Below, piece after piece: positions 46,823 to 56,906 of a DNA stretch of 64,000 nt (positions within the stretch are counted from its first letter, which is position 1; each line of letters starts with the position of its first letter). Origin of the DNA: an uncultured Armatimonadia bacterium. Its GTDB lineage: Bacteria; Armatimonadota; Zipacnadia; CAVVLO01. Below the pieces are notes generated by a model. The model was not told the origin of the DNA. It saw only the letters and a list, made by a program, of their open reading frames with translations, and ran no database searches. The translations under genes were made by a program, and so were the position numbers. The stretch spans positions 416,001 through 480,000 of the forward strand of contig CAVVLO010000001.1 in the NCBI GenBank assembly GCA_963749155.1. Reading direction: 5' to 3'.

Positions 46823-47182
46823 ACTCGTCCTCCAGTTGGCCCCACTACCTTACAGGTCCACCTGGCTGTTTTTATGCCTTGTTTGGCCGATTCCACTTCA
46901 AGGAGTGATCTGGGGGATGGGCTTGTTCCTATTTCGCTTTGCTGGCCGAAGCTCAGCCTGTTTCCCCGGAGAAAGAGGCCTTGCCCTCCGTAGCCTGGCG
47001 ACGCAGTCGCCAAAGGCGAAGGGGGGTTGCCATGGGACTTCGCCAAGGCTACGTCCCACACTGGCCGAAGCTCAGCGAAGATACTCTACCGATTAGCTGG
47101 CTTTCCCCCCAAAGCTTTCCACGAAGATACTCTACCGATTAGCTGGCCTGCCAGCCGAAGCTCGCCATCGGCGAGCGAAGGC

Positions 47183-47532
47183 TGGTGGAGGCGGCGGGAA
47201 TTGAACCCGCGTCCGAAAAGCAGTGCTACAGCCACATCTACGAGCGTAGTCCGCCTTTAGGTCTCGCCTGGCTCACCCAGCGGACGCGGTTTACCTGGCC
47301 AGCCCGGTTAAAGTCTCGGTCAACCGTTCGGGCCGCCAGTTGACCAACAAGCCACAGTTTTGTGACGGTTCCCCTCGCCCCCCGTGGCCGGGGCGGGTTC
47401 ACCGGCTGCTAGTTAAGCAGCGATAGCCAGATTGTCGTTGGCTTTTTTAGCTTTGCCACACTTAACGGGCGTCGTGGCCGTCCCGGCTCGCAGCAACTGT
47501 CACTTGGCAATCCGTCGAAGCCGATCGCCCCC
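47183..47532 (-). ncRNA. ssrA: tmRNA; tag peptide ANDNLAIAA* at 47442-47413
   Basis: 5' GGGGGCGATCGGCTTCGAC; 3' GACGCGGGTTCAATTCCCGCCGCCTCCACCA; tag ends in AA. Confidence 0.97.
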
Positions 47533-47563: not shown

Positions 47564-47605
47564 CATCTGTTCCGCTTTTGGATGGCCTTCTTGCGGTGAA
47601 CCCGC

Positions 47606-47758
47606 CTACACTTGCCCGCTCCAGCCTGCCCGAATCAGCATCACATCGAACTGCCACCAGGGCAGCTCATCCAGCCTTGGATCAAAGGGCCCCAGAAACC
47701 CATAAGCCCGCGCGACCAGCTCGCGCGCCCCAAGCTCTGGAGCCCTCATCAGTTTCCC
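47606..47758 (-). CDS. -1 frame extension (gpT-like) of the upstream ORF, or a 47-aa coupled ORF from ATG 47749
   Basis: Open -1 frame from G GGA AAC: LMRAPELGARELVARAYGFLGPFDPRLDELPWWQFDVMLIRAGWSGQV*. Confidence 0.55.
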   Translation of the reverse strand, partial: GKLMRAPELGARELVARAYGFLGPFDPRLDELPWWQFDVMLIRAGWSGQV

Positions 47759-48420
47759 AGTTCAGCCTCGTTCCTCGGCTCCATCTCCTGATAAGCCTCA
47801 AGCAGCTTGTAGAACACCTCGGGCGCCAGTCCCCGCACTTCTTCGATCTCGGTAAAATACCGCGCGTCCTTCCCTGGCTCGAAGGTCGCCCGCAGCACTA
47901 CCTCGTACTCCCACTCTTCAACGAAAGCCAGTTTGGCCAGCTCGAGGCGACGCGCTTCCACTAGTCGCGCGTCCAGTTCGCCCTCTTCCAGCCTCACCAG
48001 TTCTTCCTCCAGCGCCTCTCTTACCGCCTGCCCATACTGCGCGCGCTTCTCGGCGACTGTTTTGAGTCTCTCCTCGTACCCCTTCTCGGCTTCTTCAAGC
48101 TCTGCTTCGCTTGCGCAGAAGCCCTTCGCTGGATCCCCCAGGGCAGGTTTCGAGGGGGTGGGGAAGCGATGTGACGCTTCCTCCTCGATCACCGGCATCT
48201 GCGCGGCCACGAGATAGCCTGCCTTCTTCTCCGACCGCCACGCAAGCGCCAGATCGTCCCTTGCTTCTTCCAGCCGCGCATCGGCTCGCTCCAGCGCGCT
48301 TCTCAAGGCCGCCTCTCGAGCGGCAACCCCGAGGGTGCGCAATTCTACTGCCTCCACTCCGCCAGCCCCATCCTCAAGTTCCAGCACCTGCTTCGTCCTG
48401 TAGAACTCGCTCAGCCGCAT
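47749..48420 (-). CDS. Putative phage tail assembly chaperone-like protein
   Basis: Acidic helical 223-aa ORF, VELRTL near the N-terminus, ends LGN* on slippery heptamer GGGAAAC. Confidence 0.5.
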   Translation of the reverse strand: MRLSEFYRTKQVLELEDGAGGVEAVELRTLGVAAREAALRSALERADARLEEARDDLALAWRSEKKAGYLVAAQMPVIEEEASHRFPTPSKPALGDPAKGFCASEAELEEAEKGYEERLKTVAEKRAQYGQAVREALEEELVRLEEGELDARLVEARRLELAKLAFVEEWEYEVVLRATFEPGKDARYFTEIEEVRGLAPEVFYKLLEAYQEMEPRNEAELGN

Positions 48421-48444
48421 CGTTTGCCCCTTTCTGCTTCAGCG

Positions 48445-49485
48445 CTACCTTACCGCTGTCGAGATCGTCGACTTTGCGAACGCCATATCGTTCGCCAGTT
48501 CTCTTCCAATCGCCGCGCCTGCATCCCTCGCCACCTTGCCCAGGTTGCCCGAGTAGTCCTGCAGGTTCACGATTACCGTCGGACTCGCTTTGGTGCTGCT
48601 TGCGCTTGTCCCCCCCGACATCGACAGGTTGTACAGGTACGGCGCGCTGTCCCACGTCTGGGGCGCGTTGTAAGCCTTCCCAACCTGTGACTTCGGTTTG
48701 CTCGATTTGCTGCCCCCGCCAAACAAGCTGAGCCCCAGCCCGACAACCGCGCCCACCGGCCCGCCAAGCGCGAACCCCTGCAACGCTCCCGACAGGGGCG
48801 ACAGTCCCCCGCTCTGAGCCTGGGTGTACATATCCGCCAGCCCGAACACCTGAGGCCACGTCCGGTCGCCGCCGATCCCGAAACCCGACAGGCTCCCCGC
48901 CTTTGAGAACTGCTGGCTGATCTGCTGGAACCATCCCTGCTGCCCCAGGCTTGCCTGAAGCTGGTTCGCCATCAACGTCCGAGTGCCGAAATACCCCCCT
49001 CGACTGTTGCCGAGGGCCATCGAGGCTAGCGCCTGCCCCAGGTATCTGTCCGCTGCCGTGCTTGCGGAGGCCGGCTTCTTGCCCGCCGCATCCGGCCCCC
49101 CAAGTTCTGGGATGTCTCCCGCCGCTGTTGCCGCCCACTGGCCTGCTCCCCCTGCCTTGCCACTCTGCCCACTTGCCAGGCCAGGCGCAGCTCCTACCGC
49201 ATCTGCCTGTGGAACACGCCACAGGTCCTTGCCTCCGCTCCCGATGCCGCCACCGCCGCTACTAGCGGCCACCTTCCGCAGCGCCTCCGCGAGCAAGCCT
49301 TCCAGCGAGCCTGTGCTCCGCTGCCAGCTCCCAGGCGATTCTGTGCCCACACCATTTTGCGCCAGCCGCTGGTTTGTCCGCCTCAGTTCCTCCGCAAGCC
49401 GACCGAAAGCCCCCTCGTTCAAGCTTCGCACGCTCTCGGTTAACTCGCCCACCTTTCTCGCTACCTGGTCCTCGCTGCCTGCCAT
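48445..49485 (-). CDS. Gly/Ala/Ser-rich protein resembling a short tail tape-measure C-terminus
   Basis: GGAGG RBS before ATG 49485; N-terminal coiled coil; GALQGFALGGPVGAVVGLGLSLFGG; PTVIVNL. Confidence 0.45.
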   Translation of the reverse strand: MAGSEDQVARKVGELTESVRSLNEGAFGRLAEELRRTNQRLAQNGVGTESPGSWQRSTGSLEGLLAEALRKVAASSGGGGIGSGGKDLWRVPQADAVGAAPGLASGQSGKAGGAGQWAATAAGDIPELGGPDAAGKKPASASTAADRYLGQALASMALGNSRGGYFGTRTLMANQLQASLGQQGWFQQISQQFSKAGSLSGFGIGGDRTWPQVFGLADMYTQAQSGGLSPLSGALQGFALGGPVGAVVGLGLSLFGGGSKSSKPKSQVGKAYNAPQTWDSAPYLYNLSMSGGTSASSTKASPTVIVNLQDYSGNLGKVARDAGAAIGRELANDMAFAKSTISTAVR

Positions 49486-49553
49486 CTTGTCCTGCCTCCG
49501 TTCTTGCGTCTGCCTACACCCTCTTCCCAGCCGCCGCGCCAGTTCTTCACGGA

Positions 49554-49572
49554 TTGTCATATATAATGACAA
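49554..49572. promoter_or_regulatory. 7-5-7 inverted repeat, candidate operator
   Basis: TTGTCAT-ATATA-ATGACAA in an AT-rich divergent intergenic region. Confidence 0.5.
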
Positions 49573-49768
49573 AGCGCCAGCCTCCAATTGCTCCGTAAGG
49601 CAATCTATGAATCAGCGCAATGTATTTATATTGACCAACGCTTGTCAAAAACATCTTATCCTTCGCCTTTGCTGCCTGTCCCCTCTCCCTTCGGAGATAA
49701 GCCTGACCGGGGTGCAGGGGCAAGCTGCCCCTGCCTGGCTGCACCGTTGCCTCGCCTTTCCGCAGGGG

Positions 49769-49835: not shown

Positions 49836-49910
<75 letters not shown>

Positions 49911-50051
49911 CTCTACTGCACTAGCTGGCCTGCCACCGGCAGGCAGGCCTGCCCTTTGCAGGCCCGGCTTCCCTCGGCAGGCTGCCTCGTTTGTTGCTCC
50001 TCTTTCGTCCCGGGCGCCCAGTAGGTTCCCTTGCACAGGAGTGTGATTTTC

Positions 50052-54834: not shown

Positions 54835-56906
54835 ATGAAAATGCCACTTTCCTGGCTTGCTGATTATGTCGAACTACCGGCCGATACCAAATCGTTCGCC
54901 CATCAACTCACGATGAGCGGCCTCGAGGTCGAGGCGCTAGTGAGGAAGTCACGACCCCTGCGGGGCCTGAGACCGTCTTCGAGACCTCGCCGACCTCCAA
55001 CAGGGGCGATCTCCTCTCCCTCGTCGGCGCCTCCCGGCTGGTCCACGCGGTCACCGGCGGCGCCCTCAAGCCAATTGATGTCGCCTTCACCGAAGGTCAG
55101 GCGCCCGCCAGCTACTATGCGCGGGTCACAGTGGAGGATACCGAAGGTTGCCCGCGTTACACCGCCCGGGTAATCACTGATGTCAAGGTCGCGCCCAGCC
55201 CGCAGTGGCTCCAGAATCGCCTTATCGCCGCCGGCGTGCGTCCAATCAACAACGTGGTGGATGTCACCAACTATGTGATGCTCGAACTCGGTCAGCCGCT
55301 TCACGCCTTCGATCTCGACACCCTGGCTGACCACCATATTATCGTCCGGCGCGCCCGCTCTGGCGAACAGCTCGAGACGCTTGACGGCCTTGTGCGCAAC
55401 CTTACCGAAGACCATCTCGTCATCGCCGATGCCCAGCGTCCTGTAGCCCTCGCGGGGATTATGGGTGGCGAGGATACGGGCGTCACCCAGGCCACCACCA
55501 CTGTCCTTATCGAGTCGGCGCATTTCAAGCCCCAGCTCAATCGCGCCACCGCGAAGGCCTTCAGCCTGTCCAGCGAATCCACTTACCGCTTCCAGCGCTA
55601 TGTGGATGTGAACAACACCTTGCGCGCCTGTGACCGGGCCATCCAGCTCATCCAGCAACTTGGAGGCGGGACGATTGCCGCAGGCCCAATCGACATCTAC
55701 CCCATGGTGAGGCAGCCCGTCCGCCTTAGCCTGCGCCCCGAACGCGCCGATGCAATCCTTGGCCAGCATGTCCCCGCCGAGCGCCAGGTCACTATCTTGC
55801 GTTCGCTCGGTCTTGACGCTGCCCTGTCCGATGGCCTTATCAACGCCACCGTGCCGACTTTCAGGCCTGACCTGACTCGCGAGATAGACCTGGTGGAAGA
55901 AGTCGCCTGTGTCTGGGGCTATGACAACCTTGAGGGCACTCTCCCCGCCATCGGAGGCCTCCTCGGGCGCCTGGGCGAGAAGCACGCCTTCTTCAACCAG
56001 GCCCGCAACTGGCTCGTCGGCGCTGGCCTTGCCGAGATGAAGACCTTCAGCCTGCTCTCTCCCAAAGAAGTGGACGCTGTCGGCTGGCTCGCGGGCCATG
56101 AGGCGCCCGCTCCCGTCACCAACGCGATGAGCGAGGAGTATTCCGTCCTGCGTCCGACTCTCTTGCCTTGCCTGCTGCGCGAGGTCGCCTACAACCTTAA
56201 CCGCCAGCAGACCAGTGTCGCCCTGTGCGAGCTCGATCCGGTCTTCCTGCCCTCTGACGGTGCTTTCCCAACCGAAGAGTTTCATGCTGGGCTCGTCCTG
56301 ACAGGCCGCAATTACACCTCCGAGTGGAACCTGGGCGCTTTCGGCGCCGCCGACTTGTACGAGCTGAAAGGCCTGGTGGAGGAACTCGCTGCCCGCCTTG
56401 GCCTGCTGGAAGTCACCTTCGAGGCCGCCGAGTTGCCCTTCGCCGTCCCTGGCGCCGGCGCTCGCGTCCTGGCCTCAGGCCAGCCGCTTGGGTACCTGGC
56501 CCAGGTGAACGGCGCCACGCTCGGTTTCTGGGATATCGAGCAGCCCGTCTATGTCGCAGAACTCAACCTTGAGGCCGCCTGGGAGCTGCGCGCAGTGGAG
56601 AAGCCCTACAAGCGTCCCCCTGCCTTCCCGAAATCTGAGCGTGATCTGGCCCTGATCGCTCCAACTTCCGTGCCGGTTGGGGCCTTGCTTTCCACTGCAA
56701 ATTCCGCCGGTGGGGAACTCCTCGAGACCTCTGGGGTGTTCGATGTATTCGAGGGGGCTTCCCTGGGTGAGGACAAGCGCAGTGTCGCTTTGCGTCTCGT
56801 TTTCAGGCATCCTGAACGTACGCTCACCGATGAGGAAGTGAACGAGGCGGTCGCCGCCATCCTGACCGCACTCCAAAGTGCCTATGGAGTCGCCTTACGC
56901 GGCTGA
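54835..56906 (+). CDS. pheT: Phenylalanine--tRNA ligase beta subunit; frameshift at ~54940
   Basis: LSWLADYV..LTMSGLEVE then NRGDLLS, RPINNVVDVTNYV, RPDLTREIDLVEE, C-terminal FDX-ACB domain. Confidence 0.93.

Follow-up and report, generated by a model that had tools for sequence, protein, structure and literature searches.

The tail assembly chaperones of bacteriophage lambda are linked by the G-T frameshift, which is conserved in long-tailed phages, and G_GGA_AAC is the reported g-t shift site of the haloarchaeal virus HCTV-1, both as described in PMC5009743. The present study concerns a 64,000-nucleotide stretch of DNA (the window) from the genome of an uncultured Armatimonadia bacterium (contig CAVVLO010000001.1, positions 416,001 to 480,000 of the forward strand), in which three open reading frames, ORF1, ORF2 and ORF3, lie head to tail on the minus strand between tRNA-Val and the transfer-messenger RNA (tmRNA) gene ssrA. 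A first-pass annotation, made from the sequence alone, had proposed that this trio comprises a lambda-type G/GT chaperone pair and a tape measure in reversed order, and that it belongs to a dispersed machine of the gene transfer agent (GTA) or tailocin type rather than to prophage debris. The canonical gene order and the aligned slip site of distant relatives support the first of these proposals: ORF2/ORF3 is predicted to be a G/GT-type tail assembly chaperone of a family outside Pfam and PHROGs, and ORF1 the protein of the tape-measure position. We hold with moderate confidence that the best overall explanation is a reduced and rearranged siphovirus-type trio with a G/G-T frameshift, and the trio is best read as a retained relic, not as a piece of a dispersed tail machine.

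The evidence for this assignment comes from other families of the phylum. An ORF2 profile (alignment A3) had one match each in 13 of the 400 other Armatimonadota genomes sampled, 12 of them in one family (f36) and one in another (f47). Within f36 the homologue was found in 12 of 15 genomes and in 10 of 11 genera, and the loci matched by A3 were labelled Armatimonadota or Candidatus Hebobacteria, apart from two labelled Bacillota. When the search was turned round, a profile of 13 f36 chaperone-position proteins had ORF2 as its sole match in the window genome (E 4e-10), and hhalign of the window lineage against the f36 chaperones (A2 against A6) gave 93.8% probability with an E value of 1.8e-7 over 145 columns. 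For ORF1, the profile A1 matched the gene after the chaperone in three relatives' loci (E 1e-7 to 5e-5), and hhalign of the two ORF1 families (A1 against A5) gave 96.6% probability and an E value of 5.7e-10 over 58 columns around the GGPVGA and YLYN motifs; pairwise BLASTP between ORF1 and the relatives' gene was weak (E 0.002 and 0.071). These motifs lie in a conserved C-terminal core, which follows an N-terminal helix and a Gly/Ala-rich linker, and the GGPVGAVVG segment that the first-pass annotation had pointed out is indeed present in ORF1, a 346-aa Gly/Ala-rich ORF upstream of ORF2. The tape-measure-position proteins of the relatives are shorter than ORF1, at 259-280 aa in f36 and 212 aa in the f47 locus.

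In one f36 relative (locus L018) the cluster opens with an SPP1-type portal gene, a gene for a DUF1232 protein and the SU10 major capsid gene (3e-76), continues with a fused GT4/GT2 glycosyltransferase, a Mu gp36-like protein, a tail terminator (phrog_4204) and the tail tube PF18906 (7e-25), and then carries the ORF2 homologue, the -1 frame peptide and the ORF1 homologue, followed by a 918-aa tail protein (phrog_1887), an 808-aa protein and an M15 endolysin. A large terminase gene lies immediately upstream, host genes stand at both flanks, and no integrase was seen in the f36 head-tail clusters. In the relatives the chaperone pair is thus preceded by the tube gene and followed by the tape-measure gene, and directly after the pair, ahead of the distal tail protein, comes the ORF1 homologue. 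Neither arrangement is found in the window, where there is no tube gene and where the tape-measure-like ORF1 comes first, followed by the chaperone ORF2/ORF3, the reverse of the canonical order. The trio would accordingly derive from a siphovirus-type head-tail cluster, a near-complete version of which survives in another family of the phylum, and in the window organism only the tape-measure-position, G and T genes would be left, rearranged, with a promoter-like site of their own and embedded between ssrA and tRNA-Val/thrS.

The frameshift site itself could be followed across the same loci. The junction was readable in 12 of 13 relatives, one contig ending short of it, and all 12 readable junctions carry an in-phase C CCA AAA at Leu-Pro-Lys codons, with the zero-frame stop 3 to 36 nt past the heptamer and a conserved 46-73 aa peptide with a Pro-Trp-Trp motif in the -1 frame. 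Since CCA and AAA are minority codons in these loci (13% of Pro codons and 20% of Lys codons, respectively), the heptamer nucleotides look selected, though the genomes are kin. A profile of the 12 relatives' -1 peptides ranked the ORF3 segment first of 59,444 six-frame segments, at an E value of 1.4e-4 against 0.74 for the next. The hhalign alignment of the chaperones ends at Leu221 of ORF2, which corresponds to the leucine of the Leu-Pro-Lys codons; ORF2 continues with GGA AAC, and the relatives with CCA AAA. The expectation that heptamer and -1 frame would be conserved in homologues was therefore borne out for the position of the site and for the T peptide, and failed for the heptamer sequence. 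As far as these alignments indicate, the slip site would be inherited in position, not in sequence, and a 223-aa product together with a 271-aa fusion is therefore expected.

In the window, the 3' end of ORF2 reads CTG GGA AAC TGA with the heptamer in phase (X XXY YYZ), as the first-pass annotation had described, and the -1 frame runs on past the heptamer for the 48 codons claimed, so that a -1 slip yields an ORF2-ORF3 fusion. The -1 frame opens just 10 nt before the ORF2 stop, one codon ahead of the heptamer, and GGA makes up 12% of the Gly codons in this genome. The 7-bp CGCGCGA/TCGCGCG stem noted earlier is present as part of a longer hairpin that begins 4 nt past the heptamer, with a minimum free energy of -43.8 kcal/mol (z -1.87; 10 of 200 shuffles fold equally well). 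No covariation was found in the hairpin, since, of the three listed variants, one disrupts a G-U pair and the other two are at positions without a partner. A chance control was made on the 4159 ORFs of at least 200 aa in this genome: 39 carry an in-phase XXXYYYZ in their last five codons, 15 of these also have a -1 frame open for at least 45 codons, and only ORF2 has AAA or TTT as YYY. With 39 of 4159 ORFs carrying in-phase heptamers near their end, the heptamer by itself is weak evidence, not beyond chance; its weight comes from the comparative data. On the whole a working -1 frameshift is probable. Most ribosomes would terminate at the ORF2 TGA to give the 223-aa G protein, and a minority would slip back one base on G GGA AAC to give the 271-aa G-T fusion, as in lambda gpG/gpGT. 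We infer that the slip takes place in the window organism, that ORF1 is bound by both G and G-T, and that the trio is still useful. The coordinates of these features are collected in Table 1.

Table 1. Coordinates, in the window, of the trio and of the features around it.
Feature	Positions	Strand	Remarks
ORF1	48445-49485	minus	346 aa from ATG at 49485, a start also used by homologues P0004 and P0005
ORF2	47749-48420	minus	223 aa
ORF3 / T part	47606-47749	minus	47 aa when started at its own ATG; 48 aa as -1 extension of ORF2
Slippery heptamer G GGA AAC	47758-47752	minus	TGA stop directly after
Predicted RNA hairpin	47685-47747	minus	From folding; the G of the ORF3 ATG is part of its base
Promoter-like site TTGACA, 18 nt, TACATT	49619-49648	minus	Upstream of ORF1; consensus match only
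tmRNA gene (ssrA)	47183-47532	minus	
tRNA-Val	49836-49910	plus	

Several observations weigh against a frameshifting chaperone/tape-measure trio. The tube protein, which is the partner of the T domain in lambda, was not found in this genome, and a tape-measure-like gene ahead of the chaperone is a non-canonical order. None of the three proteins, and none of their relatives, matches a chaperone or tape-measure family of Pfam, PHROGs or NCBIfam. The homology of ORF1 is confined to the 58 columns given above, and the reverse f36 profile did not recover ORF1. The stability of the hairpin is not significant against shuffles, and the listed variants in ORF2 are six nonsynonymous against five synonymous, so constraint on ORF2 is weak. 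Lastly, ORF3 has an ATG of its own that shares one base with the ORF2 TGA (TGATG), with a GGGA 5-6 nt upstream, and it could therefore be translated without a frameshift.

This last point bears on the first alternative, in which no frameshift takes place, ORF3 is made as a separate 47-aa protein through termination-reinitiation at TGATG, and the heptamer is a leftover or a chance occurrence. Public gene calls do give ORF3 as a separate 47-48 aa protein, and the overlapping start, the GGGA and the frequency of chance heptamers all fit. Against it, the heptamer coincides exactly in codon position with the slip site conserved among the relatives, it uses a rare GGA codon, and the -1 frame opens one codon before it. 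Moreover, while the window has an ATG overlapping the stop, the T peptide of the relatives mostly has no ATG of its own, none being nearby in 10 of 12 (a count of ATG alone). We consider it unlikely that reinitiation replaces the frameshift altogether, and reinitiation at the overlapping ATG is a live alternative or addition to it.

Direct annotation gave little for the three proteins. Scans against Pfam, PHROGs and NCBIfam returned noise only and no family match (E up to 1), and seven members of the ORF2 alignment A3 matched no chaperone family among Pfam Phage_TAC and the PHROG tail chaperones (E up to 10), although a scaffolding PHROG was hit by one A3 member at 0.0025. In the ESM Atlas, PF08748 came up only at 0.83, a lead at most, and both ORF1 and ORF2 were placed nearest to unnamed viral clusters, which is likewise a lead only. 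The AlphaFold model of ORF2 (pLDDT 69) shows a beta hairpin followed by helices; it had no match at E <= 0.001 in a Foldseek search of BFVD, and a wide VIA-align search gave generic helical hairpins (best Z 6.2) and no informative fold. The model of ORF1 has a mean pLDDT of 32, and the helices predicted in it are unreliable at such confidence. A tblastn search of ORF1 and ORF2 against 50,697 phage records found no match at E <= 10; the ORF1 profile A1 found no related locus among metagenome, genome and viral contigs; the ORF2 profile A3 found nothing among viral contigs, and profile A4 nothing among genome contigs. The only metagenome match of A4 (locus L003) was rejected as a false positive inside a murE/mraY region. 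The similarity to described chaperone or tape-measure families that had been anticipated was thus absent from both the profile and the Foldseek checks, and because of this the chaperone/tape-measure assignment rests on homology and gene position in the relatives. Gene position and a conserved slip site can in this way rescue an annotation where profile and fold searches fail.

Closer homologues are few. Word-based protein searches gave ORF2 homologues at 96, 93 and 83% identity, ORF1 homologues at 99, 71 and 41%, and an ORF3 homologue at 96%, and an exhaustive HMMER search added three distant ORF2 relatives; the two most distant metagenome proteins of A3 have about 27-29% identity to the window chaperone. 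Two proteins, P0007 and P0014, end in Pro-Lys-Val, as the f36 chaperones do. The proteins P0003/P0005, P0012/P0014 and P0007/P0013 come from contigs of 2.3 kb, 5 kb and 19.8 kb, respectively. Separately, the ORF2 profile hits, with its conserved C-terminal part, a 34-residue stretch of a 4044-aa metagenome protein (P0010; E 1.5e-4). The ORF2 family was not found in 40 relatives, nor the ORF1 family in the 78 other genomes of the class; a hit of the class-wide A1 search in genome G052 was discarded as marginal, of low complexity and containing a stop codon.

This narrow distribution bears on a second alternative, that the trio is neutral prophage debris which happens to be still unbroken. It fits with the failure to find either family in the 78 other class genomes, with the finding of no other phage genes in this genome and with the many nonsynonymous variants in ORF2. 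On the other side stand the data on close relatives. Parts of the stretch occur in at least 20 sequencing runs, which come from 12 studies and include sediment, digester and wastewater samples (no RNA data sets are among the runs listed). Of two contigs that cover the locus, one of 3.5 kb (about 95% identity) reaches from ssrA to thrS and one of 2.5 kb (about 98%) from ORF3 to thrS, and the three frames are intact in both; the gaps listed for the two contigs, seven further rows existing, all fall outside the three ORFs. Among the 40 variants listed, out of a set with 170 further variants, so that selection is judged from a partial list, 23 lie inside the ORFs; 15 of these are synonymous and 16 are at third positions (p = 4e-4). 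The listed variants in ORF1 are five synonymous and none nonsynonymous, and those in ORF3 are five synonymous and two nonsynonymous, where the other two frames would give none and one synonymous out of 7, a pattern that shows the ORF3 frame to be translated. Protein lengths are unchanged in homologues at 71-83% identity, and the codon usage of the three ORFs is host-like, within about 1.1 standard deviations of the genome; the purine excess of the ORFs follows from their amino-acid make-up. Judged on these figures the trio looks retained rather than decaying, and neutral debris is improbable.

Housekeeping genes flank the trio, with cysNC, a sulfotransferase gene, a DUF1801 gene and ssrA to one side, and tRNA-Val, thrS, infC, pheS and pheT to the opposite side. 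Both ssrA and tRNA-Val have the trio at their 5' end, no duplicated 3' end of either gene (att) was found, and the only two tyrosine recombinase matches in the genome are both outside the window, so the features of an integrated prophage remnant, an integrase and an att repeat at a tRNA or tmRNA gene, are absent from the locus. None of the genes flanking the trio in the window was found in the neighbourhood of ssrA in 25 relatives of the class, and for this reason an empty site is not definable. As to whether the locus is kept in relatives, flanks and ORFs are indeed maintained at about 95-98% identity, while across the class neither family was recovered.

We then considered a third alternative, the one favoured by the first-pass annotation, in which the trio is a piece of a GTA- or tailocin-like machine dispersed in this genome. 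The intact and conserved ORFs with their own promoter-like site would suit it, and in one f36 relative the head and tail modules are about 48 kb apart. The genome searched comprises 7 contigs and is 100% complete by markers with 5.9% contamination, and the absence of particle genes was judged by sequence profiles only. Ten Pfam models (PF05065, PF17236, PF04860, PF05133, PF03354, PF03237, PF18906, PF04984, PF04865 and PF10145), which cover the HK97 and SU10 capsids, two portal and two large-terminase families, tube, sheath, baseplate J and tape measure, had no match in the whole genome. As a control, PF17236 matched in 11 of the 15 f36 genomes and had no match in the control genomes. Eight profiles built from the relatives' portal, capsid, adaptor, terminator, tube, tail and lysin proteins likewise had no match in the whole genome, and the hits of a tblastn search with the relatives' cluster proteins were set aside as generic host genes only. 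With no detectable capsid, portal, terminase or tube gene, the window genome cannot make particles from what was found, and membership of a dispersed machine is highly improbable. The earlier contrast with prophage debris accordingly keeps its negative half, in that the ORFs look selected and not decaying, and loses the dispersed machine that was to take the place of debris.

A chaperone/tape-measure relic, on the evidence of the f36 clusters, is thus very likely what the trio is. A more speculative extension is that the trio has been exapted as a chromosomal tape-measure/chaperone complex with a retained -1 frameshift, possibly co-transcribed with ssrA, that acts on the tails of others. It is possible that such a complex poisons the tail assembly of related infecting phages, as a defence, or hijacks a helper tail as satellites do; we regard exaptation as doubtful at best. 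If it were true, the site would belong to the small number of -1 frameshifts retained in bacterial operons that are cellular and non-mobile. Apart from this, ORF2/ORF3 represents a new tail-chaperone family overlooked by current phage libraries, and the trio is a clean case in which three phage assembly genes and a recoding signal are intact in a genome with no detectable particle genes, which raises the question of what role a tape measure and its chaperone have alone.

The reversed order of the genes is real, and the promoter-like site that was to accompany it stands before ORF1, with 10 of 12 matches to the consensus; two such sites occur in the 3-kb region, against 0.5 expected from shuffles. 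No terminator-like site was found between ORF3 and ssrA on the minus strand. Between the promoter-like site and the ribosome binding site of ORF1 there is an operator-like 7-bp inverted repeat (TTGTCAT, 5 nt, ATGACAA; 49554-49572), for which the listed variants are at 49562, in the spacer, and at 49553, just outside an arm. A perfect 13-nt inverted repeat pairs 47594-47606, right after the ORF3 stop, with 47392-47404 inside the tmRNA; one arm lies 62-74 nt upstream of the tmRNA 5' end and the other just past the tmRNA tag reading frame. By our estimate chance would give about 0.1 such match in this region, and neither arm has a listed variant.

Further repeats lie on the outer sides of the two RNA genes. 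A 46-nt tandem repeat (85% identity) is at 47076-47167, just past the ssrA 3' end, and a partly palindromic element of 19-21 nt (GCTGGCCTGCCA...) at 47140-47160 recurs at 49922-49942, just past the tRNA-Val 3' end. These repeats are more likely terminator or REP-like elements than att sites. Farther out, pheT is seemingly split into a 112-aa N-terminal ORF (54835-55173) and a 591-aa ORF (55131-56906) in another frame, with an overlap of about 40 nt, for which a frameshift, faulty assembly or the ORF calling itself may be responsible.

The f36 cluster merits description in its own right. It is a single-copy module of about 18 kb, running from a small ORF, large terminase, portal, SU10 capsid, glycosyltransferase, adaptor and terminator to the tube, and from there through the chaperone with its -1 frameshift and the tape-measure-position gene to two tail proteins and the M15 endolysin; L018 corresponds to G184:C190:9854-26522, and L027, L028 and L015-L022 belong to the same observation. 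Judged by gene content, the cluster is a candidate GTA or old domesticated prophage; a literature search at the level of titles turned up no gene transfer agents in Armatimonadota. The module is not uniform. The single-contig genome G200:C1 has its SU10 capsid gene (~1,479,883) and its chaperone/tail module (~1,528,216) about 48 kb apart, with restriction-modification-like and SMC-like genes in the stretches read between them, and an AMP-binding (paaK-like) gene flanks the tail end in both G200 and G184. At L016 (G284:C1:2816869-2833519) the tail module is shortened, the tail protein after the tape-measure-position gene being just 316 aa, with a secretin gene next to it; genome G284 yielded no SU10 capsid, and tube gene, chaperone, slip site and T peptide are intact. 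In several genera a fused GT4 + GT2 glycosyltransferase of 688-781 aa lies between the capsid and adaptor genes (L018:3568-5775, L019:283-2628), an unusual passenger for a structural module.

Among described systems, the trio resembles lambda gpG/gpGT and gpH in having overlapping frames joined by an X XXY YYZ site near the end of the first, a short T extension and an association with a gene at the tape-measure position and, in the relatives, a place between the tube and tape-measure genes. It differs from lambda in its longer G protein, which has a helical insert and no match to described chaperone families, and in that the tape-measure-like gene lies upstream, the stop follows directly after the heptamer, the -1 frame has an ATG and no tube was found. 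The heptamer reported for HCTV-1 is identical to G_GGA_AAC of the window; HCTV-1 is an archaeal virus with a complete tail module, and the comparison covers the heptamer only. The f36 cluster (loci L015-L030) contains a homologue of each gene of the trio, has its slip site at the corresponding codons and shares Pro-Trp-Trp in the T peptide; it differs in its near-complete particle set, canonical order, C CCA AAA heptamer and shorter tape-measure-position protein. In gene transfer agents of the RcGTA type, phage-derived structural genes are held in the chromosome without integrase or replication genes. The trio has no integrase or att repeats and sits among housekeeping genes, and the RcGTA pattern as a whole fits the f36 cluster rather than the window.

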